Assembly (NCBI GenBank): GCA_905178155.1
Contig: CAJINV010000009.1
Span: forward strand, 789,349 to 853,348
Origin: Amoebophrya sp. A120
Taxonomy: Eukaryota; Protista; Dinoflagellata
Length of the DNA: 64,000 nt
Direction: 5' to 3'
In this document: positions 853 to 51,856 of the stretch, piece by piece
Position numbering within the stretch: the first letter of the stretch is position 1
How the letters are laid out: every line of letters begins with the position of its first letter
Notes under the pieces: model-generated
Databases searched by the model: none
What the model was told of the DNA's origin: nothing
What the model saw: the letters and a program-made list of their open reading frames with translations, nothing else
Made by a program: the position numbers and the translations under genes

Positions 853-2404
853 ATGAACGAGCAGGTTCACCGTGCCGCGATCATCTGGCCTCAGACGAAG
901 AAGCAAGTGAGGAAGTTTTCTGATATCGCCATCGCACCCGCCATATGCATTGCAAAAGTATCGTAATCGTACTAGTATAAATCGCATGACAGGTTTTCAA
1001 GAAGTAGAAAATTGGAATTTGTAATGCAGAGTCAGGTAGAGAACCATTTGTCATGCATACCTGCAATTCATACGTTGCGAGTGCGATACTTTTGCAATGG
1101 ATACGCCAACGTGGAGGACGACGAGGAGTCGGAGAGGTCGTACTCTCAGAAGCTTCTGGGGTTCAAAGATCCGGATCTCCTCTGCGGGATCACATCGGAG
1201 AGGCAAGCGCAGGCGGACTTTTGTTTCTGGTTCGACCGTGAGATGTACACAGAAAAAGAACAAACCTCGGACGAACAAATCTTAAACCAATGGGAGGACG
1301 AAGAAGATGAAGACAGGAAAAAAAAAAGAAAAGCACATGACAAGAAGAACGGAAACAAGAAAGTGAAAGGAAGAAAAGCGGAGAAAAGAAACGGGAAAAC
1401 CAAAGTTGCGCAAAACCCTGTGGATGACACACCGGACCGGAACTACGTCGCGGAAGCCATGGCTGCTCGGTTGCCGTGGTCCGAGAAGAAGAAAGCGAGC
1501 GTGCCGCACGATATGATCATCCACGGGCCCGTGTTGCTCGTCTTCAGTCCAACGATGCAAACCAATGGGATGGGACAGTTTGTTGACGATATGGTTGACG
1601 ACGGCGAGTTCGGTTATCTGGGGATCGAAGAAGCCTGGAACAAAGGGCAACCAGTTGAGCAGCTGCGGAATGAGCAAAAACCAAAAACCACTTCTCCGCG
1701 TGACAGAAGGTGGAGCTTGCGCCAGCTGCAGCAGCGGGTTGCGTACTTTCACATGACCTTCGCTTCGGAAGACCAGTTATCCTGTTGCGCAAAAGCATCC
1801 CACTAAGAGCAATTAGCAATGATGAACTCTGTATTATACAGATTAGCCTAGCAGTAGCATGACAGCAGATGCAATGATTTGTATAGATCTATAAAAATTC
1901 TGCTTTAATACTTTTAGCAAGAAGGCAAAAATTCAATATTGCTATGCAGCATATCTTCTGCATCAAGTACGATACTTCTGCAATTCATACCTGTACGAGG
2001 AGAACCGGGATCCCAGAACGCGCCACCTCACCGAAGAAGAAGTAAAACTGATAACGGATATGGACAGCTGGGACACAATACCCCCCAATCTTATGGAAAA
2101 ACTTAAAATGAAGCTGGAACAAAACCTCACCCCTGAGGGCATGGAAGAGCTTGAGAAGGAAAAGAAGAAGGCACAAAAGCAAAAAGACGGAAAGAACAGT
2201 GGTGGCACAGGCCCAGTGAACAAGGCGGAGCGAAGTACTATGGATAATTCTAGGTCCGTTGATAGTCCTCCGGGGCCTAGTAAAATGTTTCGTGGGGATC
2301 GTGTGAAGACGAAGCACGCAAAGACCAAGAAAAGATCTTCGAAGAATGTGAAAGCAAGAGGTGGTGGTGGCGGCGCTACTGCGAACATGAAAAGTGAGCT
2401 GTGA
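853..2404 (+). CDS. Hypothetical protein, 3 exons (853-943, 1109-1777, 1995-2404), split by two non-canonical hairpin introns
   Basis: ORFs 664..966, 1012..1806 and 2060..2404 join in frame once elements 944-1103 and 1778-1989 (each plus a 5-bp repeat) are removed: ...IAIAPA|NVEDDEES... and ...FASEDQ|YEENRDPRTRHL...; Lys-rich tracts; start codon uncertain; no family recognised. Confidence 0.65.
944..1103. mobile_element. Introner-like non-canonical intron, family A (160 bp)
   Basis: TIR TATGCATTGCAAAAGTATCG ... CGATACTTTTGCAATGGATA (20 bp, 1 mismatch); direct repeat CGCCA at 939-943 and 1104-1108; removing 165 nt keeps the frame and removes the stop at 964-966. Confidence 0.9.
1778..1989. 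mobile_element. Degenerate introner-like intron, family A-related (212 bp)
   Basis: Begins TATCC..GCAAAAGCATC, ends GATACTTCTGCAATTCATA; imperfect repeat CCAGT/CCTGT; internal segment TTTTAGCAAGAAGGCAAAAATTCAATATTGCTATGCAG resembles family A interiors; removing 217 nt links ORF 1012 to the frame of ORF 2060. Confidence 0.65.
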
Positions 2405-3204
2405 CATTCAGTTTTTAACTACAGCCGTCTCATCCAAAAGGAGTTCAGCGAACGAAGCGGCAAGACATCTTTCAACCACTTGATGTGCGAGTCTCCCTTT
2501 CGGTCCTCTGCGTGTCTGCGTGATCGTGTTCAACAGCTCTTGCAGCTTTTTCCAAAATAGAAGATTTCGATACGCTGCTTCTGGTGCATTTTCTGATTTT
2601 TCTAATAAAGGGTAGCGAAGAAAGAAATTGCCGAGAGAACATTTTTAAAAAATGGATACTGAAAAGAAGCATGAAGAAACTTGAGATGCAGGCGTAAGTG
2701 GAAGTGCTTGTTGCAACATTCAATTTATGTAGAATCAGTAGAAGGGAGCTCGGCTGAGCGTGGTACTGGAATTTTGACGACAAAGGGGCGCGTAACGTCC
2801 TGCCATCATGATGGACCTTGTGAGCGGGGTGAGGGCCGCGGGGCGGGGGCTCTCGCTGTACTTATTAATTTGAATCACGCAGGCATCAGCGTCATCGTCG
2901 TCATCCTCTAAGGCAGCTTCTGTCTCTTTTCAGCAGACATCGCAACTTGTTGTACCTAAGCGAGTCGTAAATGCTCAATAAAGTCGAAGATGTTTCCACA
3001 TTCGCGATTCTTCCGACGTCCTGGCGATTGTGTTGGTCCACTTCGGCCAGGATTGGTAGTGCACTTTGATGTTCTGAAGAGCTACGCTAGTGGTGTGACG
3101 TAATTCAACTTGCAGGAGAAGGAGAACTCGGAAGAACAGGATCACGGCATAGGTGGTTCCGTGGCAACAACCCACCCGGAACTGTTCACCGCTGGTGGAT
3201 CAGC

Positions 3205-6200
3205 ATGCCGGCATTGGTGGAAAGGGGCCGAAACATGCACGCGTCGCACCGCGGCGGCTCCGATCATCCCGATCTTGATCTAGTGGACTACAACATGACG
3301 GTGACGAATTACCATTCAGATCACCAACATCCAGAGGAAAATGCCGAACGGCGTCACCAGGATTTGGATCATGTTGACGGTCAACATGAAGAGCTGATGG
3401 CCACCTTTGACGCCACCGAGGACAGGACACAGTTCAGGCGCAACAAGAAGAATTCGAGACGGGCAACGAGATCACCCTCTGGACCCAAGAAGAGGAATAC
3501 AATTTTGAAGATTTCTGACTGCAATATCTTCGAGGGCGACTTCATTGCGTTTTGCCACGTGTTTGCCGCAGGGGTTACGCTTGTCATGGCCCGCGTTACC
3601 CCCGGAGCTTGTTTGCTGGAGGAACTCGGCTTCACGCTGGCGGAGCTGGCCCATTGCGATGCTCTGTTTTGGTCCGGCTTTGTCATTATCAAATGTAAAA
3701 ATGTCTGGGTCTGGAAGAATGCAAGATTTGTGATGCAGGTTTTCCATGACCCATGAGGTCTGGAATGCGAGACCCAGCATGACAGATTTTTTGAGGTCTC
3801 TATCAATATCATGCCTTTCCTGCATGAGAAACTCCCTCTCAACTTGGTCAAAAGCGGACAGCTTTTGGTACTCACGCAACACAGATTTTTGTATTTTTGT
3901 ATCCTTCGGATTTAGCATGACAAGTTCCAATCTTCCAGACCCAGACATTTTTACATTTGATAGTCATCACGCAGATCGTCCTCTTCGCGCCCTTCTTGGA
4001 CCTATTTCGCCCGAACAGCGACGAGAATGACCGAGATGAGGAGGAATTCTTCAGCATAAAGCGAGATTTTGGCAGCGGCTCTTCCGAGAGGACAAAAAAT
4101 GGTTCGCAGCAGGAAGTGAATAGCCACGGGTATCACGATGTTGAAGACGAAGAAGAAGCACAGGAAGAAGATGAAAAGCAAATTTTTACTCGCCCTCCGT
4201 ACAAATACAACGACCACTTCGCTGCAGCTGGAACTTCTGTTTCCCAGCATCATCAAGGAGGCTCAGGCTTCGTCGACGACGCTGATCGAATGCAGCTTCT
4301 CGACCGAGACTGCTATAATGCCTCTGCACTCGTTCGAGGACCCGCGCGTTCGGAAAAACTTTCTTCCGAGAGCAGCAGAGGACGAGGCGAGAAAAGTGCA
4401 AGGGCAAGCGAAGTCGACAGGTTGATCCCTGTTGCGACCGCCGCGTATTCACCGTGTGGTCTGACTAAGACCCACATGACCCTTTCCGCGAGGAACTCGA
4501 AATTGGTGACGTCCAAGACGGCAATAACGCCAGGCGGCCTGCCGGACGGTCATCCCGAGAAAGGCGGCCCGGAAGTTGTGCGACTTCAGGGTCATCAGAG
4601 GCAGCGAAGCGCCGCTCCTCGCTCGACGGCGCAGCACATCGGGAAGGCCATTTTTCGCAGATTTGTGCCGACCAGCTTCCGCAACTGGCTACAGCTGCCG
4701 ACAGCCATGCCAACAAGTTTGCAGGTGGTCTACAAGAACGAGAAGAAAAAGAAAAATCAGAGTACCACGAGGACCAGTCAAGTGGGCGAAAGTGATTCTC
4801 CTGGTGGAACAAGTCATGATCTGCAATTATTCGGCGGGATTCGGAAAAAGCAAATCGACGTTTTTCAAAAACCTAAGCAAGCGCTCCTGGCCGCGCTGCT
4901 GCTCTGCGCGATCGTGCAGTTCTCGTTTCCCTCCTTGGCCACCTCGAAGGCCCTGATGCTCCTGCAAACAATCCACGGGGTGGCGCAGGGCCTCGCCTGT
5001 GCTGCTTGTGCGCAGACCTTCCGCAAAGTGGTGTACTCACCTAACCAATCCACGCTGCTTCTCTGGGTCGCCTGGGGCACGACCAGCTTGGGACTCGGAA
5101 AATTTTGCGGACCGCTGGTCACGGAGTGCAGTCTGGCGCTCGCGGCGCGGGCCCCGCCGGTTTCCACGATCATGCTGGAACTACAAAAAGTCAACCGCTT
5201 CGCCGGCATGAGCACGAGTGGCAGCACGCCTTCTTCCGGTTTGGAGCATGCTGCGGGAACTGCAGCGCCAAGGTGGAGCAGTGCTAGTGGAACAAGATCT
5301 TTGTCGCGAACTGTTTCCTATTTGCAACTCTTCGGTGATGACGACGACGCTACTGTCAAAGAGAAGGAAGCGAGCCGATTTTTTTTCGGCCTCAGCCCGT
5401 CACTTCCTGCCATCCACGACGACGGAAGTTCGTATATTCCCTTGTGGCCGCTGGTGCAGCCGCCGTCCACAAGAACAAAGTCCCAGCAGGGCAAGGGAAT
5501 GGAGGCAGAGGATAAAAAACAGCAAATCACCAAAAAGAAAAACCAGAAGACCAATGATCGCGAGGAAGCAGAGCTGGAAAAAACGTCTGCCAATAAACTT
5601 TCATTTCTGCAAGACGATGAAAAAGCTGCTGCGCCTCCTCCTGGTGAAAGTGAAGAATCTACAACATCGCGAGGAGCTGAAAGACCAAAAAAACAGGTGA
5701 AGCAAGGAGCAGGAAGCAGACAGAGGACTTCGAGTTTTAGTTCCGAAGCCCAACACAGAAAGAAAATGAAAAGAACGGCACATCGTCATGAAGATGTTGA
5801 TGAGATCAATAGGTCCGCACTATTCAGTGTTTCATCGAAAGATCATCTTCTGACAGCAGCGTCTACCGACGGTCCACAGGCACAGCCCGAGTCCGAGACG
5901 GCGGTCATCCTCGGCGAACTCGGAAAGCGAAAGAATGAAAGAACACAGAAAATAGACGGAAAGGAGGAGAAGGAAGAAAAAGAATCGGAGGAACAAGGGG
6001 CTGCTGCTCGTCCAGAACCAGAGAACAAAAAGAAGAAAATCGATTTCTTTGATAGTCGAATTTGGGCCGACTGGGACTGGTCCCGGGTGCTGTTTCACGA
6101 TCCACACGTCAAAATGGACGATGAGGAGCCACACACGGCGTCGTCCGGCGGAGATGCAGCGGATCGCGACAGCAACAAAGCACCGAAAGACCCACGGCAG

Positions 6201-9200
6201 TTGGTGTCGCAATCGTGGCGGAGGTGGAAGCGAATGAATGGCAGGGAGATGAAAAGGCACGAGAGCGAACGGGAACTGGTCGAAAAGCAACAAATAAGTG
6301 AGCTAGAAGCGATCACGACAGCATCAGCAAGTGAGGCGTCAAAAGCAAAAGTAGAACAGGAAAAAGATGCAAAGTCTGATTTGGACGGTGCGGGCACCGA
6401 TACAGCAGATGCAGAAGGAACACAGGACGACGAAAATAAATCTACGGAGGATTTGATTCGATCCCTCCTGCGGTCCCACTCGACGCAGATTGAGGAGGCG
6501 CACGAGAAACTTGAAGAAGAGGAAGAGGAGGAGGCAATTCTGGACGACATCCGGAATTTGCTCCGCGAGCGACGACGGGAAAAGGAAAAAATGCGCTACG
6601 CGGAGGATGGCGCGACTTCGGTTTCTTCGGAAACATCCTCAGCGCCCGCTGTTGAAAAAGCTGGTAAAAGGAGGCTATCCACTCAGTTCCAGGAAGAGGA
6701 ACGGGAGCTCATCGAGGCGCTGTCCAAACGAATCGCGAAAAGCTCCTCCGAAGGCGCAGCTACACACACGGAAGAGCAAGAAGCTGGAGAAGTGGAAGCT
6801 GCTGGACGAGGTGAGCGAGAAGATGGCGGACACAAGCCCTCGGCATCACCGACACCAGGAAAAGGACACTACACTGGACGGAGCAAGACAAAGAGTGCAA
6901 CTGAGCGTGAATCTGAAAAGCATTCTGGCGGAATCTCCTGGGATCCGAAGTACAACAAAAGGGAGCACCAGCATCAACATGACGGCCACAAAAAATCTCA
7001 CTCGCACAATCTCGGCAGCGGCAGCAGCAGCAGCTCTATCGGCATCTACAAGCATCGAAGTACTAGCACATCGACCACAAAAGCCTTAGGCGACGACGAG
7101 GGCGCAACCAGTAAAAGCACAAGCTCGGACCTCCATACAATTACAAATGACGCAAAGGGAAAAGATGACAAGAACGCGGAAGGACAAAGAGCTACTTCTT
7201 CAAATCCGGACGACGCGGCCGCAGAGGAGAAAAGTGAAAGGGACCCGGAGTACGAGGACAAATTCGCTTTTGGTGCGGCTTCGCCAGCGGACATGTTCCA
7301 GTTCCACGCACCGTTTGTGTCGCACGGCATCATCTTCCTGATTCAGGCCTTCCTTGTTTTTTGCACCTTATCTGTGCCGCAGAAGTCAAAGCTAGAAAGA
7401 GCCCAGGATGAAATTCTGGCGCAGAAGGAGCGGAAAGCAAGGATTCAAAATGGTATGTTCTCCTCTCATCGCCATCGCCGGCGTCCGGACGTCGAGGGTG
7501 CGTCCAGAACTACAAGCAGGCTTAGAAATGGAAACGTTTCCAGAAACACAGGGTCCTGTCGTGGAAGTGGTGTACGTGGAGGGTCTTCATCCACTTCCTC
7601 ATCTTCCAGTTGTGCGAATCCGTCCTCATCTTCGTCGGCCGAAAGTGAAGCCCAGGATCAGGCCCATCTCCAGCATCAGGAAGAGGAACTGGTTAGTTTT
7701 TATTCCGATCGCGAGTTCGAGAGCGTTGAGGACCTCGAGGACGAAGATATCTCGCCGATCATGTTCGTGCAGGACCACGATTTAGACCATTGTATCCACG
7801 GCTCCTCCAAAAATGCGGCTTTAGAAGAACCAACGCAGCAAGCGGGAAGAGCAGGCGTGCAGCCAGGGTATTATCCGGGAAGTGTGGACCGGTTGCAGCA
7901 GGGCAGCAGCTTTTTCCAAACTTACACGCGACCCGACGAAGGCGGGCCTCAAAGCAGGGGGCATGGGGCCGCTGTAGCGGCAAGCGTTCGCATTCTCGCG
8001 CGAGGTAAAGGCACCACCAGCCGGCGTCCTGCACAAGAACGTCCGGCGCAGCCTGATCCTGCTGCGGCGCAACACTGGGGCACGTATTACGAGAATGAGG
8101 ATCAAGAAACCAGCATGTCCGCGGTTTCAGTGTCAGACGTGGAGTATGAGGATCGGCGCGGTGGGGTCGAGCACCTTGATGTTTCAAATCACGGACCAGT
8201 GCTGCGACGAGATAACGACAACGACAGCACTCAACCTCGAGAAGAAAGCCCCATTGTCGTGAAGGTACTTTACAGCACTCTTACTCATTTATTGCGCGCT
8301 GGTGCGGCATGACTTTAATGTATTCAGTTTCGTCATCAATTTTAGTAGTTAGACCTTAAAAAAATTTTGGAAAATCACGGTCTCATTATCAACATCGATC
8401 TTCCAACGCGTCAAAATAAACAAATTGCAGGTTGTTGGTGGCGTTATCCGCGTCACTTCCAACGCCGATCCGGAAGAGCCGCGCTCTCGTCTCATGGAGG
8501 ACCACTCGCAAATAAGCAACTTTGAGAACAAATCCTCCAACCTGGACGGACGACCCGGCTCGTCCGGCAATTCGGCCACCAGCATACACTTACCGGATAA
8601 CGATCCAGCGGAAGTAGAGGAGATACAGTACGAAGGAACCAAAGAACCACGACGGGCGGTGGGGGAGCAGCTAGTAGAAGAAGGGGTGTCCTCTTCTCAG
8701 CGACGAGAGGACCACGACAGCAACATGATGATCTCTTCCAGTCTTCAAGCGCTGCAAACGGCGCTCCAGCAAGACCGGTCGCACAGAAAAGAGCGCCTGG
8801 CGTCGCTGACGTCGAACAGCGATCACGATGCCGGTCGTCAAAGTAGCAGAAGAGGCCGGCGTCAACATGATGGTTCTGCTGGTCACCGCGGACGAGGAGG
8901 TGTGCTGTCGCATGGTCCAAGCGCCGACAACTCGTCGAAAAATTCAGAGGAGATGAATTCGACGGGCGGCACAAGCAGTCTCGAGCCGTCTAGTATCGTC
9001 AACACCGCGAGGGATCATAATTTCTACAGCGCGTATGAAAGACAAGAGATTAGTACGACGACCTCGATGCGATCGTCTAAGGAAGTAAACCTGAATCCCT
9101 ACAAGAATAGCAGCAGCAGTTCCACTCTGTACGTGGGCAACAATGACAAAACCACTCGTGCAGCAGTACAAGCAGCCGGAAACCCCGGGGGCGTGGTCAC

Positions 9201-10676
9201 GAACATTCTGAACTCTAGTCATACGGCTTGCCTGTCTGCTCCGCACTACGCAATCGACACGCCGGGAGTCGCCAGTCGGGATGTCAGAGACCAAGCCGAG
9301 GATCTTCTGACCAGGAGCGGTGCCACGGCCTGGTATTTGACGCAGAGTGGTAGTATTTTCTGAAAATTTTTCAACCATCCCCATCGAATTGGAATTTGTC
9401 AGGCAAAAGATGGAGTAAAGTTGGCTTTGTTTTGTCATGCAATGCTGGTTCCGCATCCTCGCCCACCCGACCCCCTGGGGAGAAGAGCCATTGCCTGTTG
9501 CGCTGGGTGCGAGTGCGGAGGGAGGTGTCCACTACATCATGATGACGGTGATGCAAAAAGTGGATGTGGATGGTTAAAAATTTTCAGAGCATAAATAGCG
9601 GCAGCAGTTCAGCAGCGTCAACCGCTCGCGGAGGTAGTCATCTGTTGCAGCTGACGACAGGCGCATCACTTTACCACCCGCAGAGGGAAGTTGCAGGAAG
9701 ACGCGGGAGTGGCTTGCTCGAGCACGAGCAGCGGCTGCGGCAGGATGATCTCCTACATCAAGCTGATGAAGTCGTAGATATGGAGGACATGCAACTTGTC
9801 CAAGTTGCTCGACATAACTTTCTCGGCGAAGGACAGGAAATGTTGGCCAGTAGCACGAATGCGCCTACCGCGGCGTCGCAAGAGACAACCTCGACGTCCA
9901 CCTCCCGCAACATCCTCTCCGCCACTGGAATCAACCTCCTCGGACCGTTTTTCAGCTCGGTTTGCATTTTATGCGTCGCTATGTTGGAGGCGGCCTACGT
10001 GCTGTGGCTCACGTTTAGCTTTCCACGCGGCGTCGGAACCATGTTTCTCGCATTGCACGGGCTTGGCGACGCCTCGAGCGGTCCCCTGATCGCACTGCTC
10101 ATCGTCTCCAGTACGACGGCAGACGCAGAGACAAGGAGAGTAAGAACTTCATCCGGTGAAAGAACAACGACAACGAGGACCTCCTCTCATGCAGGAGCCC
10201 TTCTATCCAACGGAATGATTGACAACCGTGCCACGACAGCCGCCAACAGCTTCAACTCCCGAACAGTCAGTCGCGTTGTGACGACCCGATTCGACCTGCG
10301 CTTGGCCGTGTGGGTGTTGTGCTTCGGATTAGCTTGCATCTTCGTGTTCCTCCTCCGCATAGAACAGAACCCAATTGACACGTATTGTCAGCTGCTCACC
10401 GCAGTTTCGGTCTATTTCCTCGGCGTTCTGATGGCGAGCATTCGGGCGCTGTTCGGCGGCTTTATCCTGCTCACCTGCAACGTGGAAACCGCAAGACTGC
10501 AAATCCCGTTTTTTTGGTGCAGCGGCCACTTTCTGTGCAACTTCATCACCCCCGTTATTGGGGTCGGTTTGCCGTTGAGCCAATTTTTAGCCTACTTCGC
10601 GATTGTGTTGTCTTGCGTCGTCACCCTCGTACTCAGCGGCGAAAAGACCGTTCGAGGATTCGTCAGGTCACCGTGA
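3205..10676 (+). CDS. Very large multi-pass membrane protein, probably MFS-like transporter with giant hydrophilic insertions; exons 3205-3686, 3968-8264, 8431-9353, 9599-10676
   Basis: Four ORFs join in frame via element 3687-3962, a GT-AG intron 8265-8430 and element 9354-9593. Hydrophobic helices with MFS-like character (LFWSGFV|ITQIVLFAPFLD; LLQTIHGVAQGLACAAC; SLGLGKFCGPLV; FHAPFVSHGIIFLIQAFLVF; several C-terminal helices). Confidence 0.6.
3687..3962. mobile_element. Introner-like non-canonical intron, family C (276 bp)
   Basis: Perfect 32-bp TIR TATCAAATGTAAAAATGTCTGGGTCTGGAAGA; direct repeat GTCAT at 3682-3686 and 3963-3967; removing 281 nt fuses ORF 3205 to ORF 3957 in frame. Confidence 0.93.
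8265..8430 (+). other. Canonical GT-AG intron (166 nt)
   Basis: AAG|GTACTT ... TTGCAG|GTT; AT-rich; its length restores the frame between ORFs 3957 and 8425. Confidence 0.75.
9354..9593. mobile_element. Introner-like non-canonical intron, family B-related (240 bp)
   Basis: Imperfect TIR TATTTTCTGAAAATTTTTCAACCATCC ... GGATGGTTAAAAATTTTCAGAGCATA; degenerate repeat GGTAG/AATAG; contains TTTGTCATGCA; removing 245 nt joins ORF 8425 to ORF 9564 (QSG|SGSSSA). Confidence 0.78.
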
Positions 10677-11651
10677 GGAGCAGGTACAACAAGTCGTGAG
10701 TGTTACTGTTCGTTTATAACGACGACCTTGAAACCTCCTGCCCAACACGAGCAGGACGGCAGTGAGAAAGTGAAAACAAAATAATTCTGAAATTAAGAAC
10801 CTGAGATAGATCTTCAATATCGTGAAAGTCGGAAATATGCATGTCTATGAAGTTTCAGAATCCGATAAATTTACTAAAAATATGCACAATTTAGAGAAGT
10901 CAGTATAAATTCAACAGCCTTTTTTGTTCAAAAACAAATAGATAATGCCTCTGTATATTCCACGGATGTAGGATGAAATTTTTCTTACTTTTTTGTTTCT
11001 TTTTGATTTTGTAGCTGCACGAGTGTAGTGAAAATGTTGCTTAACGACGTAAAGAAAAAGACCGACGTAAAGAAATTTACCAGTGGCTTTTCCACCAGAA
11101 TTAACCATGTAAAATGTAACGGAGCAGCCTGACTCAAAGTCAGAGCGGCCGCAGCAGGAGTGCCGTCGAAGTTCTATTCATAAAAATTAGCAATGACATC
11201 AATGTCAATGTTGTTGCTGCAGCACAACAATTACAATATCCTCGCGACGATAAGCCGGGCCCTGTTCGTTGATAGGCCAAAAAGGCCTTCTCGCTTGAAT
11301 TTCTGTACAGAGCAGCCGCAAAAGTTCTGCAGTTCGTTATTGATGTCCCTCGGCGATTCATTTTGTGGCGGTGGTGTTGGCTGCGTTGTTTTGTAAAAAG
11401 ATTTGGCTTTGAGTGTCGTGCGCGATAGATACAGAGAGGAAGACACAAGGATGAAGCGACGATTAGGATTACGAGAGGGCAATGAACGCATTCTGCCGTC
11501 GTGCATTTTCTTCGTGGTTGCACGTTTTCGACAGTAAACCACCTCTGAGAGTCCAAGAAACCACAAAGCGCATCAAAGTTCTTGAAAGTTGTATGAGTAA
11601 AGTTTTAAGTTCTTGTGCGCTCGTGCATCAACATCGTACAAGAAAAAAATA

Positions 11652-14600
11652 ATGTCCGGTCGTCCCCCGTTTTCATTGGCGGGAGACAACGGCTCGCCCA
11701 GTGAGCTTTACGGTGGCGGAAAGAAACACTGGCTCCGCCGCCTCCGACTGGACTACCGGCCTTGTGCAGCCCCGTCTTTTGCTGCAGCCGTGGATGATCG
11801 ATATCGAGATGACGAACAAAGCGACAGCCCACTCGGCCCGGAGTTCTGCCTGCGGGATCGGACCGCGCCCGGCTGCAAGCAGGAGGAGGGGCTCCGGTCC
11901 ATTTGGGCCAGCGCGGATCGCAAGGCACGTGAGTGCTTGAATGCTTTGTATCTGGTGAACATGAAGACTACCAGTGGAGGCACTACTAAAATTGGAAGTA
12001 GTAGTAACAAGCATACCTTGGGCGCCGACCAACCGCCACCGTACCCGGCCCGGCTGGCGATACGAGTGTACCCCGAGTTCTTTTTCACCGTGAAAAGCTA
12101 CCAAGCTGTGCTGACCGAACGCGAACGCCAGGAGAATGCGTTTGTGTTCGGCGATGGTGTGCACGGGCAGGGGTACTACCTGATCCGTGAACGAGAGGAA
12201 GAGGCAGCGAGTTCTGAATTTGGGATAAGTGGAAGTGCAATTACCGGCACCACGGTTGCATCCTCAAGCTCGTCCCATCCTCATCCTTTTGCAAAAGTCT
12301 TGAAGTCGTCCGCCTCCGCGGGATCATCTTCATCTTCGAGGGGCGCCGCTGCAGCAAGACGCGCGTCCATGATTTTGCGTCCCGCGTTCCGCGGAGGCTT
12401 CATCGGTCCGCGCGAGGGGTTTTTCTTCGGTAGGACCACCCCAGAACAGGGAAGGATACTGGGGTACTACCCGCAGCGGCTGCCAGAGGAAGAGATCGAC
12501 TTCGAGCTCGCCCCGAAGTTTACTGGTCCGCGACCCGGCTTTTTCTTCGGAACGCGCCCGATCCGCGACGGCGGCCGAGAGCATGCAGCTACAGTGCTCT
12601 ATTTGGGTTACCACCGGGACAAAGCGAAGGCCTTCGCGGCGTCCTCCAGTGAGGCTCTTCATCTTTCCGTTGCGCAGCAGCAGCTCGAGCAGCAGCAGCC
12701 ATCGGCGGCCGCACTGTCGTCGAAAATATTGAGGACGCTCGCGGCCCAAAACAAATCAAAGTCACTGCAAGCGAAGGAATTGTCGTCGAATGGTGCAACA
12801 GCGTCCCGAGCGCATGCTGCAGCTGGAACGCCGGGGGCAAATGCGAATACGGATATTTTTGCCGATTCGACGAGGACCCCGAGAGACGACAGGGGCGACG
12901 CGAGTGCAAGTGCGCAATACAGTGGCGACCAAACCCAAGCTCCTTCCGGTCGGGTAGGGACGAATTTTTCAATCACTTTTTCGTCCACTTCCGCGGGGGC
13001 CGTGATGCGACCCTTTGACCCTGGCGCGGTCACCGGGGCCCGAATTTTGGACATCGTGCTGGAACTTGCAAAGTATGACGCATCTGCCCGTGAATTCCTC
13101 AAATTGCTCCTGCACCGTCCTTCCACAATCGATGCCTGGAAGTCATGCACGGGTCTGTCCTACAGCGTTCCGAGTCTTACTGATTGTTCAAAAGACGACG
13201 CCGGAAAGCAAAAATTGATGCTGAACAAGGAGCACGGCGCCAGCAGCGGCTCCAGCACCGGTGCCGCGGCCGCAAGCAAAGACAAAGAGCCACTCGTGGG
13301 CCGAGCGTTGAGCTCGGTGCTGAAACGTCCCCGGTTTGATGCTGCGTGGTTGCAGGGTGGGCACAAGAGTTATTCGTTGCGTCAATTTGTGTTTGACCGT
13401 GCCCTACTGGCCTTCATGTACCAAATATCCAGCATGGCGTGGCGACCGTTCTTCAACGAGCATCGTGTGCTTGCCGCGATGCCGAATGCGCGGCTGTTGA
13501 ACAACGCTTTCCGGTTGAAAGGAGAGGGGAAGACCATCGAGAAGCAGATTCAGGTTCTGCAGTCCGTCTCCAAACCAGCCTGGGCGCAGCGCCGTGTCGG
13601 GTCGCCGCCTGGGCGCGCCTCGTCAGCCTGGATGGGCGGCCACGCAGCTTACCAAGCGGAAGGCGATGTGTATCACTGGGCGCGCACTAGCAACAACTTC
13701 ATGCAGAAGAGCCTGCTTTACAAGGTAGTCCTTCGGAAAGATACACACTACACCTGTTGCAGTTTCATAATTCTAGCACGCTGGATTTGATTGACATGGC
13801 TCTTGTTCAGTTGTATGTGACATCAACAAACATGGAAACAATTGCAAACACGAAGACAAAACGCTGAGTGTTTTAGTTTTCCAGTTCGGTGGTCGGGTTC
13901 CAATGACTAAGAATAAAAAGCAGGAAGGTGCAGTTGTGGTTGATCAGCTTTTCTTCTCATTGAAAAACGTACTAACACAGGCGACCAACAAATCCCTGGC
14001 AGATGACGACCTCGGCATCAACAGCCACTCTGTGTTGGCCTTCGGGAGCGTACAACCGAACGTGAACCAGTATGAAGGTGGGCGCTACAACAATGCCCAC
14101 ACAACGACGTATGGTCCAAACGCAAACGCCAGCGGTGCACCACTGTCCGCACGCTGGGGCACGCACAGTGGCATGTTTACGCCCAGGGAAGCATCTTTGC
14201 AGATGACCCCGCGATCTGCGCGCTTGCAATTCGATGGTGGTAGCAGTGGGACGCCTTTTTGCGTTGAAAACGATGCCCTCGGTGGCAATGACACCATCCT
14301 CACCGCTCCTGGAGCTTCTGCTGACACGTGTTCGCTGGAATTGGATCTTTCCTCTTGCTTTCGCGCGATGCATGATCGCCTGATGTGGCAACCTGTAGCG
14401 GTGAGCTCCCAGTATCGGTTTGTGCCGCAGAACCGGAAATCCATCCTGAAACACGAACAACAAATGAACGCGGACACGGTGCTGGCGTCGTGGGTGAACA
14501 GAGGAAACAATCCGCGGGACAAAGGCAAACTTTGGGCCGCGAGAGAGTTTGATCCGAGCTATTCAAGTCGTACCGCCGGCGGGGGCAAGACCAAGAGCGA

Positions 14601-17600
14601 GAACCACATTGTGGACATGAAGACAATGCCCGCCGACTGGAGCAAGAAGTTTCCCTTACGTCATGACCAGATGGCGGCCGTGACCTGGATGCGCGAGCGC
14701 GAGTTGCGAGCGAAGCCTTTCCGGGTTGAGTACGAGCGGATGCTGGAGGGCAATTTCTTCCTGCAGGATTTGGCCAACTGGGATTTGGAGCTCCGAATGC
14801 AGGCGGACTACTCTGCCCGGGGCGGCGTTTTGGCAAACCCGGTGGGTGCCGGAAAGACCGCGACCGTGCTGGGTTTGATTGCGCTGGACAAAGAAGCTCC
14901 GTTACCGTGTGACGAGCCCGGGGCAATGCCGCAGAAGCCACCGACCCGATTCCCAAAAGGGTTCGAGCACGACCGCAAACCAAAGCAGCCGGTCGCAACG
15001 GCGGCGGACAGCGACGAAGAGGAAACCTCGTCTTCCCCCGCAGCAGCTGCGCCCCTTTTGGAAGCAGGCTCGTCTACTAAGAATAAGAAACTGAACAAAC
15101 GAAGCCGCGGACGAGGAGCGAAATCAACGTCTGAAGACGCACATCAAACTCGAGCAGCGAAATTTTCTCGCCAGACACCTTCTCGCAAGACACCTTCACC
15201 TTCCAAAAAATTGCCGTCTGCCGTTGTCGCGAAGGCAAAAGCCTGCGGCAGCGTCAAGAAGAGTAACAGCAAAGTGAAACCAACGGCGAAGGGAAAAGCC
15301 ACTGTCGCGAAGAGCAAGGCAGCTGGAAATAAGGCGAAAGCGTCGCCTCCGCCGTCAGGAGGTCGAGCAGCGCTTCAACATATTAACGACGTCGTGCCTC
15401 CTTCTACTCAAACCGCCGCGGCGAGCGCATCATCGTCTTCTGGTCCGCCCAACGCGAGAGATGGAGGCAAAAGCAAGAAGAAAAAAGTCGGGTCCTCTTC
15501 GGACGCAACTTCGAAATCCGTTGCCGACCAGGTGCGAAAAGTCTTCAGCGACCAGGAGGCACAGGTTTTGGACCACGACTGCTTTTTTCCGAGCAAGGCG
15601 ACTCTTGTTTTTGTCCCCGGCCACCTGGTGGACCAGTGGGAGCGGGAAATTGCTAAGTTCATGCCCGATCACAAGCTCAATATCCTCGCGCTGCGCAACG
15701 TCAACCCCCTCAAGCTGCTCACCGTCGGCGACATCCAGCGGGCAGACATCGTGATTTGCAGCTACCGCATCCTCTTCTCAGAGAACTACCAGCGCCTGCG
15801 GTTGAAAGAGCTGCTGTTTGGCTTCGGTGCGCATTTTTTGAAAAAACCAGGCAACGCAGCTGCAACAACTTCTGCCACGACGAAAACAGAAAGTGAAAAA
15901 GAACCGAAGAAAGTTGGCAGTGAAGAGGACGAGGTGCTGGAGGCTGCGTCACAACGGGAAGGTTTCCGTTCTCCAGCTGCAGCGATGACCTCGGCCGCAA
16001 CGCTGCCGACCGAAGCGAACAAGGAAACAAATATTGACGGGGGTGACACAAACACCATGTTATCTGCGTCTGGGCCGACACAGACTCAGACGCTGAATCT
16101 GAACTATAGACCGACGAGCAGAAGTGGTGCACGACCTCAGGCGATAACGATTCTGAAGACAGAAAACCAGCAGCAGCAGGGAGGCAAGAGCAGTAGTTCC
16201 TCGGCAGCAGGAGGAGAAAATCAACAACCCAGCTCGTTCGCAATGGCGCACAGGCCTGATCTTTCCCTCTGGATTCAGGATCGCAAGTACGGGATTCGCA
16301 CCAAGAAACGCAAGGTTGACTCTATCCTCTCCGTAATGGACCACGGAGCGCGTGCGGTAGTGGATGCCACGGGCGTGGTTCCGAATGAGAAGAACAAGTA
16401 CAACAAGAAAAGATTTGTCGAGGAGGAGCAAAATAAACCGCTGTCCACCGTGTTGCAGGGACCCGCAAAGGAGCGCTTCAAATCCTGGCACTTCTCAGAC
16501 CGCGAGCGAACGATGCTCCATTCGCTGCTGAAGGAGCAGGTGCGAGAGTTTCGCAAGAACCCGACGCATTTCCAGCACTGGCACGACAGTCAACGCGATG
16601 GTGTCAAGTACTTTCGATCGATCCACCGGCAAGCCTTGCTTGTCGCCGCGGCGGTTGAGACGGCGTCCCGCGCAAACAAAAGTTTAAGCGAGAGGGCCGA
16701 GCAGCGGCGCGCCGCATTGTTGGAGAAGCTAGCGCAAGAATTGTCGGACGATGGCGACGAAAGACCACCGCAAGCAGAGAGCGACGGCAGCGAGCCAGAT
16801 TCACCTCTTGCACAAGAGATACAAAACGCGCAAGGAAAAGCGAAAAAGAAAAAGCCGCGGCCACGAGGGCGACCGCGGCTGAAGCCGAAGCCCATCGAGG
16901 CTGCTCCGAAAGCGAAAGTACTAGCTCAGAAACCCAAAGTTCTCGTTGCCTCAGTCCTACTGAAGAAGCCGAAGCGGAAAGAAACCCGGCTTGTTCCGCC
17001 TGGCGGTGGCAAAAACAAAAAGCTGCTGACCAAAAAGAAGGAGAACAAAGCAAGTCCGGGTAAAAGCAAACAAAAACGCCACACACCGGGTAGGAAGAGG
17101 CCTGGGAAAGAGATGTCAGAGCTGCTCGCGAGTCCTGACAAGGTCGCCGAGCCGCGCGAAGACTCGCTCCAAGACACGGAGTACTTCACGAATTGCGTGC
17201 GCGAGTTTCGGAGAGCCCGGCTGCTTGGCACGGAAGAGGAGTGCGCCACCGCGCTCGAGATCCACGAAGCCCAGGACCTTCGCTTCCCGCTACTGGAGAT
17301 GTTTCTCTGGCGTCGTGTGGTGTTTGACGAGATGCACGAGCTGGAATCGTTCAATCCGAAAGAAGTGGACATTCTGCTGCGGTTCCGCGCCCTGTTCAAG
17401 TGGGGACTGACCGGCTCCCCCGCGGCCTTCTCGGTTCGATCCGTCAACGCCATGGCCTCGCTCTTGTCCATCGATCTGCTCGGCGTGTCAAAGGAGGAAT
17501 CCGGTCTGTTGGACCAGGTCCACCAGTACGCCGAGGCGTGCGCTGTGACGCAGGGCGGGGACCGGGGCGGGGCCTTGAGCGAGCACCTAGCCACCTATCT

Positions 17601-20600
17601 CGCTCAGGACGAATACAACTTCGACGCGGTGACGCAGCGGCTCAAAGCCTGCGTGGACTGGTTCTGTAATTGCTGCGGTGCAAAGCTGCTTGTGTCCCAC
17701 AAGATGCCGCAGGTCTTTCGCGGTACAGTCCGCTGTGGCGAGTGCGGCGCCGCGAACCACGCAGAGGTCCAGTTCCGCCGGCGCACGAGGCTCGACGAGG
17801 ACGCAGACTCGCCCTCCAACATCAATAGCTCCCCGCAGCCACTGCCCGAGGTTGGCAGTCGGGTCTACGACCCCTCGCTACGCTGGTCGGCGTCTAACTT
17901 GATGACCACGAATTTGGTGGAGGCCGCCAGCAGCCGCAATTCGCGCACGCGCATGTACGTGGAGGATCGGCCGCTGAGCAGCGACTTGGCCTACGTGGTC
18001 CAAAACGACGACGTGGACAGAAGGCGTCTCCACGCCTTGCAGTATCGAAACGTGAATTGCGGGGTGCGGTGGACGGTCCCTTTGGACGTTGCTGATGCTG
18101 GAGGGAAAGGCGATCGACTGAGCCGTAGCAATCCAAATCCTAGGCAGGATATCTTTCAGCTGAAGAACAAGACACAGCATCACGACGTTCTTGACGAGGA
18201 TGTTGAGGCTCGCCGGCTGCACGACCATGATGTAGCTCCTGAGAACGCGCTTGTTCCCGTGACAAGATCGGCCGATCATAACGCAAACGCAATAGCCGAG
18301 AGCAGACAGAAGATCGTGACGAGGAGCGCCAGTGCTATCGCTGTCAAATCGTCTATTGCGATCCCTTCCTTTTCGCTGAGACGGGAAGACATGCTCTACT
18401 CAGATTTTCAACGGCAACTGGTGAAGCTCGAGGGCCGGCTGGACAATGCGGACTATCCAAAGAAAAAAACCCATCCACATCCAATTTGTCATGCAAAACA
18501 CGTATAAAATCATGTGTTTGTCATGCAAAAAATGGATGTCGATGAGTTTTTTTCTGTGGAAACGGACGGTCGCGACAGTAGTAGCAGCTCGTCGTCGGCG
18601 GACGAAGGTGCTGGGCAGGAGTACGACGACGTTAATGCTTTGCGAGAAGCGGAGCGAGAAGAGGCTGTCCTTGGCATGAGCAGCATTCGAAATAAAACAT
18701 CGAACAGCGGGGGATTCGAGCTTGCTGGCCTGAAGAGTTTCGCAACCGTTACCGCACAAATGCGAACAGAGACCTTGCTCTCGCCAGGCAGCGAAGATCA
18801 TGGCTCTTCCTTCGTGGACGTTGCAGACAAAGTCGCGCAGCGGAGCAATCCTCCTGGGCTGACGCCAGCACAGCAGGCAGGGGTGCAGTCCATCCCAGGG
18901 CTAGAAGATGATGGCATCGTGGAGCCCGTTGCTGGTTTGCTGTCTGCGGCTTCACGCCAACTGGTCGTCGCAGCGGAAGTGAAGCATTCGTCCCCAACCG
19001 CTGTAAACCCTTTCAACGCAGCCGAGGACCGGCATTTTCGGATCGCCGAGGAGAGACGGATGATGCGCGAACTCGACCGCTTCCGCAAAACCGCGCAGCC
19101 GCGACTCGTCGCCGTTCCCTCGGCGTTTGCGCTGCAGCGCTGGAGCACGCTGGCCCGGCACCCCTTCGAGCGGTCCGCCACATACCAGCAGAACGCCGCG
19201 CGGTTCCTTCGCGAATTTGCGTGGCGGCGGTCCTACCCGTTGCGCGTCCGCGTGGTCCAACACGTCGTTTATGTCACACAGATGCCACAGGAGCGAGCCT
19301 TGTACTTGAACCGCGTCCAGTCGCTGCCGACCTGTCGGGAAGTCTACGAGTTGCCCGCCGCCGATGGCGTGGTCACGAGCACAACCCGCGGGGGAACCCA
19401 GCGCGACGCGGGGCAGCAGTTTGCCACTGGGAAGCACATACCGATCTCTAATGTGGAAATCGAGCGCCGTCGCGAATTGCTGGAGCTATGCTCGCACTTC
19501 GCAAAAGGTAGGAAGTACGAGAGATGCTGCGCTTTTTTTAGAGACCACCACCCGAGAGAAACTTCATTTTGATGATGAGCTGCTGCGTCTGATGGCTTTA
19601 GTACTATCTTCAGACGAGCAGGTCATGAGTCGGTGTGGGCTAAAGAACAAGAAGTAGATGTAGGTCTGCTTATAAAGGACACGCATGATCTCTCTTTGTC
19701 GCGTACGCGTTCGATTTCCACGCCACAAGAAAACGCCCAACCAAAAAATCAGGCACGCACGGTTCTGTCACCGGCGAGGTTCTTCGCGTGCTTGCTAAAC
19801 GGCGCGCTGATGTCGAGTCCGATCTTGCCCAGGTCGCCTATTTCTTGAAGCAGCTGGAGTGTTGTTTGCGCGTGCGCGTATTGGGGGCAGAGTCTCGAAG
19901 CAGCTCAGGATCGTCGTCGTCGGCCGCCGAGGGCGAGAACGAGGAGGAAGAGCCGGGTCTCTTTTCGTCTTTTTTCCCGACCACCATGGGCAAAAACGTC
20001 CGCAAGCAGCGGGACAAATATTACAGTGGCAGTGTTCTTGGGAGGAGCAACGTGCGGGTGATGAAACGCAAAGACTACAAGGAGACGGAAAACTCCGGAC
20101 CGTGGGCATCACAATCGGTTGCAAACTTGATGAGGGCTAATGATGCTAGCATGGTACACGAGAAGGGTCTTCCCAAACACTTGTCGGAGAAAATTCGAGC
20201 TGTGATGTTTCATCCAACGTCAAGTGCGGACACAGCCAGCGGCTCGGGTGGAGCCGCCTCGTCTTCGTCGTCCTCGGCACCAAGGAGCGGAGGTCCCTTG
20301 TTGGTGACAAAGACAGGCGCGGTGGTATCATCGACAACACTTGCAATCATCGCTGCGTCTGGTGCCGATACCATCAAGAACAGCGACCCTGTGTCGAACA
20401 AGGACAGACGTAGTGCCAGAGACGGGCTCGGTCCGGGGGAGCGCGCTACGCTGCTGGGCGGTGGTGGGGCGTCATCGTCTTCCTCGACCCTGTTGCCCCC
20501 ATTGTCTTCCTCTTCTAGTAGTAGCGCCGCCGGTGTGCAGCAAAATTTGGTTTCGGGCTCGACCAACTATGACCCGTTTGACTTGGATATGATAGTGGAT

Positions 20601-23840: not shown

Positions 23841-24424
23841 AAGGTGGTTCCTAGTGCGACGTGAAAGCGTTCTCAGTCAGGAAGCAAGTTTGATCATCCA
23901 GTATCTCTAACTCTATCTCCAAGAGTGTATCAGTCTACCTTCGGCAACTACAAGAAGAACAAGCGCGCCAGTGCAGTACTAGCAACAGTGATGTAAACGA
24001 CGCGGCGGGTTCTCGCAGGGCGCAGCGGCCCATCGACATTCAAATTCCGAATTTTTGAAAACAACAAGAGGCGAAAAAAGAGCCCCCGAGAAGACACACA
24101 AGAACCTACAAAGAGTAGGTTTCTTTCGTCTGAGAGTGCTGGCCGAAGGCGAAGATATTTGTTCGCGGATGTGGTTTTTTTTTGGGCATAGGAGGTCTCC
24201 TTTGTTCGCTTCGGTTCTTGTGCTTCTTGGTCACTTTATTTGCACCTCGAGTCCTCTGATCCACTACTCGAGGATTCTTGGTGATCGTGCTGTTGTTCGA
24301 CCCGCCTCAAAAATCTTTCTGCATACACAACTAACTTCCATCAGAGCAGCATGTGGTCATTGCTTGGGCTAGTGCTTGTGCTCAGACGTGTCCCTGTCTG
24401 AAAAAGCAAAAGGACACCGTAAAA

Positions 24425-39165: not shown

Positions 39166-39545
39166 AGGAAATGTTTACTACTCTGCTCTCACAAGCCCTA
39201 TCGCGCACGGCTGCAGCATTCTTGTAGTTACAAAATCGCACACAATCATGATTTTCTCAGCGCCCACGCTTTCTTTCAAACGAAGAAGAAGAAGAGCCAC
39301 CAGAATCCTTGAAACTCGGAAAGTTTCTCAACAAGGAATCTGATATGTCATCTGTCGTGTTTGTCACATCACACGGACACGCCAACGTCATATTATACTG
39401 TGCCTATGCTAGACACTGAATTTTGATCAGTTCGACAAGACCGACGATTTCGATCAACGTCTTTTCTCGTTTCGAAACCCTGTCACACATCTAGGCTATT
39501 GATCCCAAAGAATTATTTTCGTTCGTAGAACGCAAAACGAAAAAA

Positions 39546-45984: not shown

Positions 45985-47143
45985 ATTGATAAACAAGCAC
46001 GGCGGCTGTAGTCTACTTCTGTCCTCATATTTCAGAGCTACAAGAATAATTTTAGGCGAATTTCTTATTGTCGGTCGTAAGGCCGTAAACATGTAATTTC
46101 ATATGACACCCGAGATTTTCTTATCTTTTCGCTCTCGAGGCGACACACCAATGTCCTGGCGCAGCCATTCTTTTTCATGCATGTCGCTTCTAGATGAGTC
46201 GATGCATAATTTTGAAGGCAAGACAGCTGACCGCTGCCTACTGTCAACATGTCTGATCATATAGAAGCGCCGTCTTTTTTTGTTTTTCTGCTTCTTGCGC
46301 TTACGTTCCTGCTAAAATCAATGCACATAGCAGGTCGTATGATCTTGTTCTACAACTTCGCACAGTTTTTAGATGTTCAGACGCACCATTTCACTTCACA
46401 TATAGTAGGTACTTATGTGCTTACATCTTTCATCTTTAACTGTGCCTACTAACGCCTGCAAAAAAAAAAAACGAGGACATCGAATTTTCCGTTTTGTGAT
46501 TATCAAAAATCAATCTGGATATTTGCGAACTTTTGTCGGCCGCCTGTTAAAACAAAGCAAAGGCTTAGGTATTTCAGCCAAAGCGAAAACAGAAACCAAA
46601 AGATGCGCACCCGCATCATCCTTTTTTTGTCGCCCCACCGGCATCAACAAGCCAGCGAGCAAAAGTTTTGTGCTGGTGTTCGTGTTCGCTGCAGTCTCTA
46701 CATTTATTTTTACTCCTCGCACAGTGTCAGCGCATACGCATAGTGGTCAGACGCAAATTCTTTTGGTCATCGGCTCGAGCTAATGTTTTTTCGTCACATC
46801 CTGCATAGTTCGTCGTGTTGTTTTTTTCGTTAAGTACACTTCGTTGGTTTTTTTATGTCGGAAGCGGAGGGTTTTTTCATTTAAATTTTGTTCTCCTGCA
46901 GCTGTGTATTCAATGCAGAGCAGCGCCGGTTTTTCATCACGACGATCGCAGTAGGTTGTTTGCAGGGAATCAAAAAACCGGGCGGCAGTAGACTCTGTTC
47001 GACGTGCTTTCGATTGTTTTTTGGCTCTCTCCTAGTTCGCGTGAGGACCATCGAGAAACCACATAATTCGTTTTTCGTAGTAGTCGTCGTTCCCGAAATA
47101 TTAGTTCAAATTCTGCTAGAGCGTAATCATCAACATCAGCAGC

Positions 47144-48438
47144 ATGGGGTGTTGCGCTAGTGCGGACTTCCGCGCAGCAGATCATGGCGCGAACAAAGCG
47201 GAGGATGCAGTTGTTGGCGGAGCTCATAAGGAAAACGAGAACAACGCTGATGTGAACGTCCTCGGAGCACCACTACTCCTCACCGATGTCGACGTCCAAG
47301 TGAACAATAAAGCAGGTGGAGGCGCCAAGGCCAATGGCACAACGAGTAATTTTGAGGACCCCGAAGCGCTTTTCTTTCAGTCTCTCGACGAACACACCAA
47401 CCAGGTTCTGCTGGACTCGCCCAAAAATGAACACCACAACGAAGATGTTGAGCAAGAGCAAACCGAAATGAAGAATGAAGAAAGCAGCAACAGCGTCCTG
47501 CTCGGGTCGCCAGTCGAAGGTAGCACGGCAAAAGGCTCTGCCGAAGCCGATGACAGCGCAAATACGATCATGAGAGACGACTCGGCACCGGTCCGCACCG
47601 ATAGCATGACGATCGTCCCGAACAAGACCAAGAACAGCCCGTCCGGTGCCGGTGAAGCCACAGCATCTACTTTCGCGACGCCCTCGAATCTGTTGGACCG
47701 GAAGAAAGTCGACGTGGATGCTGCTCTGCAGGTCTACCGGAAGTATGGAAGCGTCAGGTGGGAAATCGGCGACATGGACCTAACGTGCAACGCATTTGTT
47801 TTTTTAATTGCCAGCCTTAGTTAGCGTGTTTTCTTGGCTCCTCGTCAAATTTAGTGTTGCATGCGATGGACATGAAATTGGCCTCATTCTGAGCTTGCTA
47901 CGATTCTTCACTTGACGAGTTGCTGAGAAGCGTGGCACGAAGTTCTTTTATGACGGCTTCGGAAAAATTTGAATTTTCCTCGCGCCGCTTAGCAAGCAGA
48001 AATGGTGGCCGCCAGCAGCAGCACAACTCGTGTCGATTTTATAAGGCACAACAGAGGCCATTACAACTTATCAAGTCGCTTCGACGATTTTCCACTTAGT
48101 ACCACTTTCATAGAAAGGAGCTGGCGAGTAGTCCGGATCGCACTAGTAGCGTCCACGATGCAGAGGACTTTGCAGAAAACGTGAAGCCAAAGACCCTCGG
48201 TCTGACCGACACGCGGCCCAAGGGGGGTGTCCGGAAGGCCTTAGCCACCGAAAAACCGTCGAACTGGGTATCCAGGAAAAAACACCCATCCCCATCCATT
48301 TTTTGTATGACAAATAGTGGATTTCATGCATGTCTTGCATGACAAATTGGCTGGGGATGGGTGTTTTTTCCTGGATACTGGGTCCCCTTCGTCTCCAGCA
48401 TCCACCTCCGGCCGATTATGACATCGGAGAAAAGATAA
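47144..48438 (+). CDS. Hypothetical protein with N-terminal MGCC myristoylation/palmitoylation-type motif; exons 47144-47757, 48114-48268, 48383-48438
   Basis: MGCCAS start; GT-AG intron 47758-48113; element 48269-48377 carries an in-frame TGA and its removal gives KPSNW|VPFVSSIHLRPIMTSEKR*. Confidence 0.7.
48269..48377. mobile_element. Introner-like non-canonical intron, family B (109 bp), inverted relative to 18454-18562
   Basis: Perfect 26-bp TIR TATCCAGGAAAAAACACCCATCCCCA; direct repeat CTGGG 48264-48268/48378-48382; same length as the 18454 copy. Confidence 0.92.
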
Positions 48439-51793: not shown

Positions 51794-51856
51794 CTATTTG
51801 GCTTGTGGAGGCCACACGTTGTAAGCTATCTGGCTTGTGGAGGCCACATGTTGTGA
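51794..51856. repeat. Tandem duplication of ~32 bp
   Basis: CTATYTGGCTTGTGGAGGCCACAYGTTGT occurs twice, followed by GAATCA-like short repeats. Confidence 0.8.

Follow-up and report, generated by a model that had tools for sequence, protein, structure and literature searches.

Hairpin-ended introners of Amoebophrya sp. A120 lie between strict 5-bp repeats, are kept in DNA and are probably removed from RNA by a hairpin-positioned route

Introns that arise from repeated elements are abundant in Amoebophrya sp. A120, in which about 29,850 repeated introns have been reported (PMC7789003). The introners described there begin with TAT, followed by seven variable bases and at least three A residues, and are bordered by direct repeats of 3–5 nt (Farhat et al. 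2021, PMC7789003; this and the other papers are cited here for parts of their content). The same study argues against general mobilization by a transposase and leaves the position of the cut open, and its figures may detail repeat length and position further (PMC7789003). A later survey distinguished 58 introner families in A120 (Gozashti et al. 2025, PMC12130899). Here, we analyse 11 such elements in a 64,000-nt stretch of the A120 genome (contig CAJINV010000009.1, positions 789,349–853,348, forward strand; hereafter the window, with position 1 as its first letter). The system in the window is the published A120 introner system and as such is already known; the citation of Farhat et al. given in an initial annotation of this DNA proved correct, as that paper describes the TAT-starting elements of A120 (PMC7789003). 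We conclude with good confidence that the elements are hairpin-ended introners that were likely inserted by a cut-and-paste transposase, are kept in DNA and likely leave the RNA by splicing that is positioned by the hairpin.

All 11 elements were located at the starts assigned to them in the initial annotation, which was made from the letters alone. They are short and non-coding, with lengths from 109 to 308 bp, and are named below by their first position, each with the evidence that bears on its removal.

944–1103, 160 bp: introner with exact 5-bp repeats at 939–943 and 1104–1108, of the family of 21639; missing from deposited protein P0002.
1778–1989, 212 bp: decayed introner with repeats CCAGT and CCTGT; the third base of the upstream copy is kept in protein P0002.
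3687–3962, 276 bp: introner with exact repeats, of the family of 23366 and 24443; missing from deposited protein P0003.
9354–9593, 240 bp: introner with repeats GGTAG and AATAG; the first two upstream bases are kept in a contig and in protein P0003.
18454–18562, 109 bp: introner ending in AAA; 114 nt (the element and one repeat) are skipped in a spliced contig.
21639–21788, 150 bp: introner within a RING finger; a contig piece stops at 21632, and an orthologue supports removal.
22455–22762, 308 bp: introner in a poorly conserved linker; frame evidence, and depth that indirectly favours skipping.
23048–23292, 245 bp: introner in a C-terminal helicase region; orthologue evidence.
23366–23626, 261 bp: introner in the C-terminal helicase region, orientated opposite to its relatives 3687 and 24443; orthologue evidence, as detailed below.
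24443–24704, 262 bp: introner ending in ATG, the sole element of the 11 readable as GT..AG; frame evidence only.
48269–48377, 109 bp: introner forming a near-perfect palindrome, orientated opposite to its relative 18454; frame evidence only, in an uncertain host model.

Nine of the 11 elements combine an exact 5-bp flanking repeat with 16–20 complementary bases among the terminal 20. The 5-bp direct repeats originally ascribed to the whole set are imperfect at 1778 and 9354, with one and two mismatches, respectively, and the inverted repeat of 1778 has decayed. The direct repeats are distinct at all 11 sites, and the end variants AAA (18454) and ATG (24443) are as first described. Hairpin folding gives z-scores below −4 in nine elements, −2.6 for 9354 and +0.4 for 1778; the two ordinary GT-AG introns described below score +0.9 and −1.9. 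The published left-end pattern of TAT, seven variable bases and at least three A residues is present at eight of the 11 left ends, the exceptions being 1778, 22455 and 23048. A strict scan, which required ends resembling TAT and ATA, 5-bp repeats without mismatch and at least 12 on the terminal score, finds nine elements, against a mean of 0.05 and a maximum of 1 in 40 shuffled sequences; a loose repeat scan, with 11 matches in the real DNA against 3–10 in eight shuffles, gives no separation. The motif TGTSATGC occurs 26 times in the 2,332 bp of the elements as opposed to four times in the remaining 61,668 bp of the window. Repeated families are present inside the window itself.

One further candidate at 11175–11607, with a TAT start and exact 5-bp repeats, was rejected: its inverted repeat scores 7, within the shuffled range, and it lacks the internal motif. 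It lies upstream of the next long frame and is probably a chance match or a very old element. Low-scoring scan matches at 32683, 61360, 61705 and 61962 were dismissed likewise.

To these we added related elements from another public assembly, in which a 20-base end motif matched at least 151 stretches; 150 loci were kept, about 80 of them with wide flanks, and the sample is skewed to one family. The exons of the window have no match in these loci, and the elements are 67–86% alike. Ten of the 11 window elements have blastn matches among the loci, 1778 being the exception, and two element end motifs had no match in viral contigs. A 604-nt match of two of these loci (L002 and L003) across 23048 and 23366 together was set aside as a chance adjacency of two families, since spacers and repeats differ. 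From the loci we drew 305 inverted-repeat pairs, chosen without requiring a direct repeat.

Deleting each element with one repeat leaves an open frame on the + strand at all 11 sites, as had been claimed, and this evidence is weak at 24443 and 48269, because only six codons precede the former and only 17 follow the latter. Sliding the junction within the repeat yields GT..AG at one site of 11 (24443), again as first reported. In this, and in the lack of strand-specific end signals among the relatives (below), the elements differ from canonical U2 GT-AG introns. The interrupted genes are as follows.

664–2404, + strand: host gene 1, encoding 452 amino acids and identical to GSA120T00004035001 (CAD7959467.1), protein P0002.
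3205–10676, + strand: host gene 2, encoding 2259 amino acids and identical to GSA120T00004036001 (CAD7959469.1), protein P0003.
8265–8430, + strand: ordinary GT-AG intron, in the gene that holds elements 3687 and 9354.
13795–23840, + strand: host gene 3, an SNF2-type helicase with a RING finger; its start codon is not fixed.
19508–19752, + strand: ordinary GT-AG intron, skipped in the contig that also skips 18454.
24425–26779, + strand: host gene 4, 695 amino acids without 24443; no Pfam match.
47144–48438, + strand: likely host gene 5; its upstream intron boundaries are not fixed.

Elements and GT-AG introns had been said to coexist in the same genes. This is so in two of the five hosts, by virtue of the introns at 8265–8430 and 19508–19752; gene 664–2404 has only element introns. 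Host gene 3 opens over about 2,900 codons once five elements and one GT-AG intron are removed.

The deposited proteins, transcript contigs and an orthologue indicate, for most of the elements, that they are absent from transcripts. Searches with the exons returned two deposited A120 proteins that match at 100% identity. P0002 is reproduced residue for residue (452 amino acids) when 944 and 1778 are removed, and P0003 likewise (2259 amino acids) when 3687, 9354 and the GT-AG intron 8265–8430 are removed. The deposited A120 gene models came from transcript alignments (section 25 of PMC7789003), so we treat these proteins as prior annotation rather than as an independent method. Read data from four of ten listed runs were compared with positions 5600–25500 of the window. 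Run X1 carries no type label and was classed as RNA-type because the GT-AG intron 19508–19752 is skipped in it. Its record 6 joins 17482–18448 to 18563–19505, so that 18454 and one repeat are absent, and skips the same GT-AG intron; the piece after this join ends at 21632, at the repeat preceding 21639. Record 2 ends at 9350, and placing its other 145 letters beyond 9354 gives bin depths of 6.75 and 13.48; the observed depths are 6.75 and 13.5, and retention of the element would give 9.02 and 11.21. The depth of the bin at 22455 is closer to skipping than to retention, which is indirect evidence. Removal from transcripts without GT-AG is therefore seen directly at 18454 and by depth at 9354. 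The raw RNA runs X8 and X9 contributed seven and two reads, respectively, none of them on exons.

Separately, four raw RNA reads of run X8 (2026) carry the family end found at 24443–24476 in foreign flanks, which points to unspliced element RNA or to DNA carry-over in that run.

For host gene 3, an orthologue from strain AT5.2, for which almost only GT-AG introns are reported (PMC7789003), gives a gap-free alignment over the junctions at 21639, 23048 and 23366. When six in-frame deletion sizes were compared at each of these three sites, the element plus 5 nt scored highest, with 740 against 718–730. At 22455, in the linker, the same orthologue scores in-frame sizes alike (740–744). The orthologue is an empty site at the protein level; among the 150 relatives' loci there is no orthologous DNA. 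Altogether, removal is supported for one element by a direct RNA junction and for seven more by depth, deposited proteins or the orthologue.

The relatives give the same picture from frames alone. A retained element would introduce a stop or a frameshift in 175 of 177 cases. From 282 elements, 180 have at least 60 nt of flank on both sides, 116 of these scored as coding and 84 have both flanks called on one strand; retention of one repeat copy fits the independently called flank frames in 76 of the 84. With a stricter margin and six strand conflicts dropped, the fit is 41 of 41, and an earlier version of the test gave 26 of 27.

In DNA, the elements stay in place. Run X5 is DNA-type, its contigs retaining the GT-AG introns; a single X5 contig passes through the whole of 9354, and others reach into the remaining six elements from their borders at a depth of 43–50, equal to that of unique DNA. 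Among the joints listed for the runs, cross-family joins between repeats filled the table, with a further 211 beyond those listed. Because this run keeps the elements, excision from DNA, one of the routes allowed for at first, is not supported. Together, the short length, the terminal inverted repeats, the fixed 5-bp duplication and the evidence for removal support the proposal that these are MITE-like (miniature inverted-repeat) DNA transposons acting as introns outside the GT-AG rule.

What marks the elements for removal seems to be independent of their orientation. The two largest families among the relatives occur in both orientations with respect to the coding strand (17:9 and 9:7; pairs 145:141), which argues for a structural signal. 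The first 16 positions of the 5′ ends and of the reversed 3′ ends are alike (p > 0.25 each, n = 87), a GT-AG register is available in 5 of 76 sense as against 3 of 76 antisense elements, and no base bias was found at positions −10 to +10 of 148 joined sites. Two mismatched repeats bound the cut: at 1778, residue 316 of P0002 requires the upstream copy through position 3, and at 9354, residue 1900 of P0003 and the X1 contig require it through position 2. If one register holds for all elements, the 5′ cut lies at TAT or within 2 nt of it, and the 3′ cut 3–5 nt beyond ATA. The GT-AG of 24443, at position 2, would then be coincidental; alternatively, this one element may be spliced at GT-AG. In strain A25, in which the repeats begin TTA, TT-NN junctions predominate (Table S4 of PMC7789003); these fit a cut at the foot of the hairpin, or may instead reflect the convention of an aligner. 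Where the two repeat copies differ among the relatives, the differences fall preferentially on third codon positions: 21 of 38 do so (p = 0.0065 against no constraint), and 18 of 25 when the margin is strictest, perhaps more than a fixed cut would give. This excess is not robust against a model in which one copy is free (p = 0.05–0.37 at margin 2, 0.002–0.036 at margin 5); both copies may perhaps sometimes be kept in the mRNA through a variable cut.

The relatives also bear on insertion. An exact 5-bp repeat borders 211 of the 305 pairs, or 245 when one mismatch is allowed, and repeats of 4 and 6 bp border three and none; many of the remaining pairs are, by inspection, inner pairs of the same element. 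TAT stands at 543 of 564 ends (in a search tolerating one mismatch per element), and A at positions 11–14 in 86–95% of 422 ends. TGTSATGC is present in 199 of 211 relatives, mostly 30–55 bases from the ends, and is common to several families; it may be a putative transposase binding site. Inside the 5-bp duplication no base is preferred in the relatives, and outside it there is a mirrored preference, independent of the coding strand: the upstream flank favours T at −13 and G at −11, and the downstream flank favours C at +11 and A at +13. Of 530 half-sites, 273 have the A at +13 (background 0.21; 10 of 22 in the window), which shows enrichment in five of the six end groups, and 241 have the C at +11 (background 0.29; 12 of 22 in the window), which is enriched in some groups only. 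Both mirrored halves occur together in 52 of 265 sites, rarer than the roughly 70 expected under independence, and the preference is therefore not one of RNA pairing. A mirrored preference in DNA is what one would expect from a transposase or integrase that acts as a dimer; the pattern in these sequences points to a symmetric, probably dimeric, transposase. We argue from the strict duplication and the mirrored preference that a transposase does the inserting. No coding partner was found among five longer elements (457–1,031 bp) in the relatives' loci, in which a stop-free stretch never exceeds 151 amino acids.

Three of the longer members (L066:2991–4021, L073:4014–4985 and L048:3305–3935; 631–1,031 bp) have exact 5-bp repeats, up to ten internal motifs and no long frame, and are likely nested insertions.

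Taken together, we propose that a transposase would bind the TAT ends and the repeated internal motif and cut the target with a 5-bp stagger, where the flanks show the mirrored preference at 11 and 13 bases from the duplication. In the transcript, the two ends would pair, the 5′ cut falling at or within 2 nt of the foot of the hairpin and the 3′ cut 3–5 nt beyond its other foot, and recognition would work in both orientations because the two ends look alike on either strand. Removal of exactly the element plus 5 nt, which is supported for eight of the elements as described above, restores the original reading of the gene whatever the phase of the insertion. The most likely catalyst would be the spliceosome core of the parasite with an altered recognition step, and its main rival a separate cut-and-join enzyme. 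The fully specified version, in which orientation-blind excision from RNA, by a system other than the standard spliceosome, is coupled to one transposase lineage recognizable by its TAT..ATA ends, strict 5-bp duplication, internal TGTSATGC repeat and mirrored target preference, we put forward only tentatively.

The same data admit other explanations, the strongest of which differs from hairpin-positioned splicing in catalysis only. A non-spliceosomal endonuclease and a ligase could read the hairpin, as proposed for the nonconventional introns of euglenids, which would explain why there is no strand-specific end signal, no orientation bias and no base preference at the joined site; U1 was not detected in A120 (PMC7789003), and the similarly built euglenid introns leave as circles without lariats (PMC11282704). 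However, A120 keeps U2, U4, U5, U6 and nearly all spliceosomal proteins (PMC7789003), and the non-canonical introns of tunicates are handled by a changed U2 spliceosome (PMC11282704), and we regard a separate enzyme as possible but doubtful. We consider it quite improbable that RNA polymerase skips a hairpin or cruciform by re-pairing at the second repeat, so that the element never enters RNA. A DNA hairpin and direct repeats would suffice for such skipping, which would be blind to orientation, but 9354 is skipped at exactly the element plus 5 nt with only three matching bases and 1778 is skipped with a weak hairpin; element sequences from other loci are also present in X1 and raw X8 RNA, though DNA carry-over could explain these.

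The joins might instead be template switches of reverse transcriptase, with the element staying in the mRNA and ribosomes hopping between repeat codons. A hairpin with direct repeats is a known setting for false introns (PMC2923612), each 5-bp repeat contains one in-frame codon, and the main text of Farhat et al., in the parts cited here, mentions neither template switching nor RT-PCR (PMC7789003). Against this, the in-frame codon changes the amino acid between copies in 11 of 29 phased imperfect-repeat elements, the first stop lies a median of 21 codons in (within two codons in only 8 of 170), both imperfect window elements break the codon match and X1 depth is absent inside 9354. Hopping fails the codon-match test and was rejected, and the combined account appears very unlikely; template switching is not the whole story because the deposited proteins need removal, and may contribute to the reads. 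Excision from the DNA of expressing cells, in the manner of the internal eliminated sequences of ciliates, would leave just this footprint of element plus one repeat, but the X5 contigs hold 9354 whole and cross the exon–element borders of the others at the depth of unique DNA. These contigs drop rare variants, so that a minor excised fraction or excision at another life stage is possible; as an explanation of the data we hold it to be highly improbable. The least credible alternative is that transposons have turned the host genes into pseudogenes, or that nearby GT-AG sites are used. A convincing Pfam match is missing for four of the five hosts, yet the conserved RING and helicase motifs continue across three junctions, spliced transcript contigs exist, the repeat mismatches show the third-position bias given above and no GT-AG register fits the join seen in RNA at 18454; this alternative is largely refuted already.

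Several points weigh against hairpin-positioned removal of transposase-inserted elements. A single junction is seen directly in RNA, in assembled cDNA contigs, and template switching during cDNA synthesis classically occurs at hairpins flanked by direct repeats; the deposited proteins rest on the same kind of data. The cut position is based on two sites. The flank-frame calls are noisy at low margin, with opposite strands in 32 of 116 cases. Element 1778 is removed despite a hairpin no better than shuffled sequence (z = +0.4), and pairing alone is therefore not the whole signal. C at +11 is missing in two families (4 of 46 and 25 of 90). No transposase was found in the window or in the relatives' loci, and Farhat et al., in the parts cited here, report no such transposase in A120 (PMC7789003).

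If orientation-blind excision of this kind holds, insertion in either direction and any phase would be harmless, and mismatched repeats would serve as cut-site reporters by which the cut could be mapped genome-wide from existing RNA reads. The strict duplication and the site preference would provide a fingerprint for finding the transposase; Farhat et al. doubted insertion of this kind (PMC7789003).

The window has other features. Every long frame, including those of the five host genes, is on the + strand, which fits the co-oriented gene blocks reported for the genus. At 23840–24820, X1 record 6 would, if all remaining elements were skipped, pass the helicase stop into the next gene; its length hints at overlapping or read-through transcripts there. 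A large inverted repeat at 52023–52588, with 216-nt arms that are 91% complementary and 37-bp tandem units on either arm, is not of the TAT/ATA type. It lies in a GC-rich region without convincing genes (50400–54300) that, like a second one at 63100–64000, possibly derives from a larger mobile element; one palindromic motif is found at 51185–51220 and, in inverted form, at 53862–53897, and a 45-nt direct repeat stands at 48918 and 49490. An AT-rich block at 60600–62600 (GC 0.38 in 60001–62000) has short tandem repeats near 62420, and its longest frames reach about 200 codons under table 4.

Among described systems, IS3EU/GingerRoot transposons share TA..TA termini with the elements, and their integrase-related transposase class would suit a symmetric insertion (PMC10045372). 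Their duplications, however, are usually 6 bp (PMC10045372) and those of the A120-type elements 5 bp; with a 6-bp duplication in none of the 305 pairs, we dropped this assignment because the duplication length differs. The nonconventional introns of euglenids have in common paired ends, repeat-like borders, the lack of GT-AG, coexisting spliceosomal introns and cutting at a defined spacing from the stem (PMC12501133, PMC11282704). They differ in lineage, in a purine preference at the first base of the next exon, for which the A120-type sites show no bias, and in their end signature, a CDG/CHG stem 3 and 5–6 nt inside the ends (PMC12501133), whereas the window elements end in TAT/ATA by inspection. 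Introners of Micromonas and Aureococcus and non-canonical introns of Fritillaria share a MITE-like origin, duplication at the borders and precise removal (PMC11282704), but carry or co-opt fixed splice dinucleotides, of which the A120 elements have none at a fixed register beyond the TAT start.

The closest system is that of A120 itself. In 22 of the 58 family rows of Gozashti et al., compared with the window by label and length, the families are mostly labelled ‘TIR DNA, Unknown’, with lengths of about 106, 149, 160, 252–260 and 305 bp, like those of the window elements; these rows assign no superfamily and list duplication lengths of 2–5 or none (PMC12130899). With the introners of Farhat et al. 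the window elements share the strain, the ends, the inverted and direct repeats, non-canonical junctions and the existence of families, and nothing differs in kind (PMC7789003); four of the 11 (944, 1778, 3687 and 9354) are already introns in deposited A120 models. In the literature searched, which did not extend to subscription papers and theses, and within the parts of it cited here, we found no statement on the orientation, internal motif or target preference of A120 elements. Where Farhat et al. give repeats of 3–5 nt (PMC7789003), the window and its relatives show a strict 5 bp, a mirrored preference, both orientations and two sites that bound the cut. The elements are thus already published; the strict 5 bp, the mirrored site preference, the internal motif, the occurrence in both orientations and the bounds on the 5′ cut go beyond the published accounts, to the extent that these are cited here, and make the mechanism of removal more testable.

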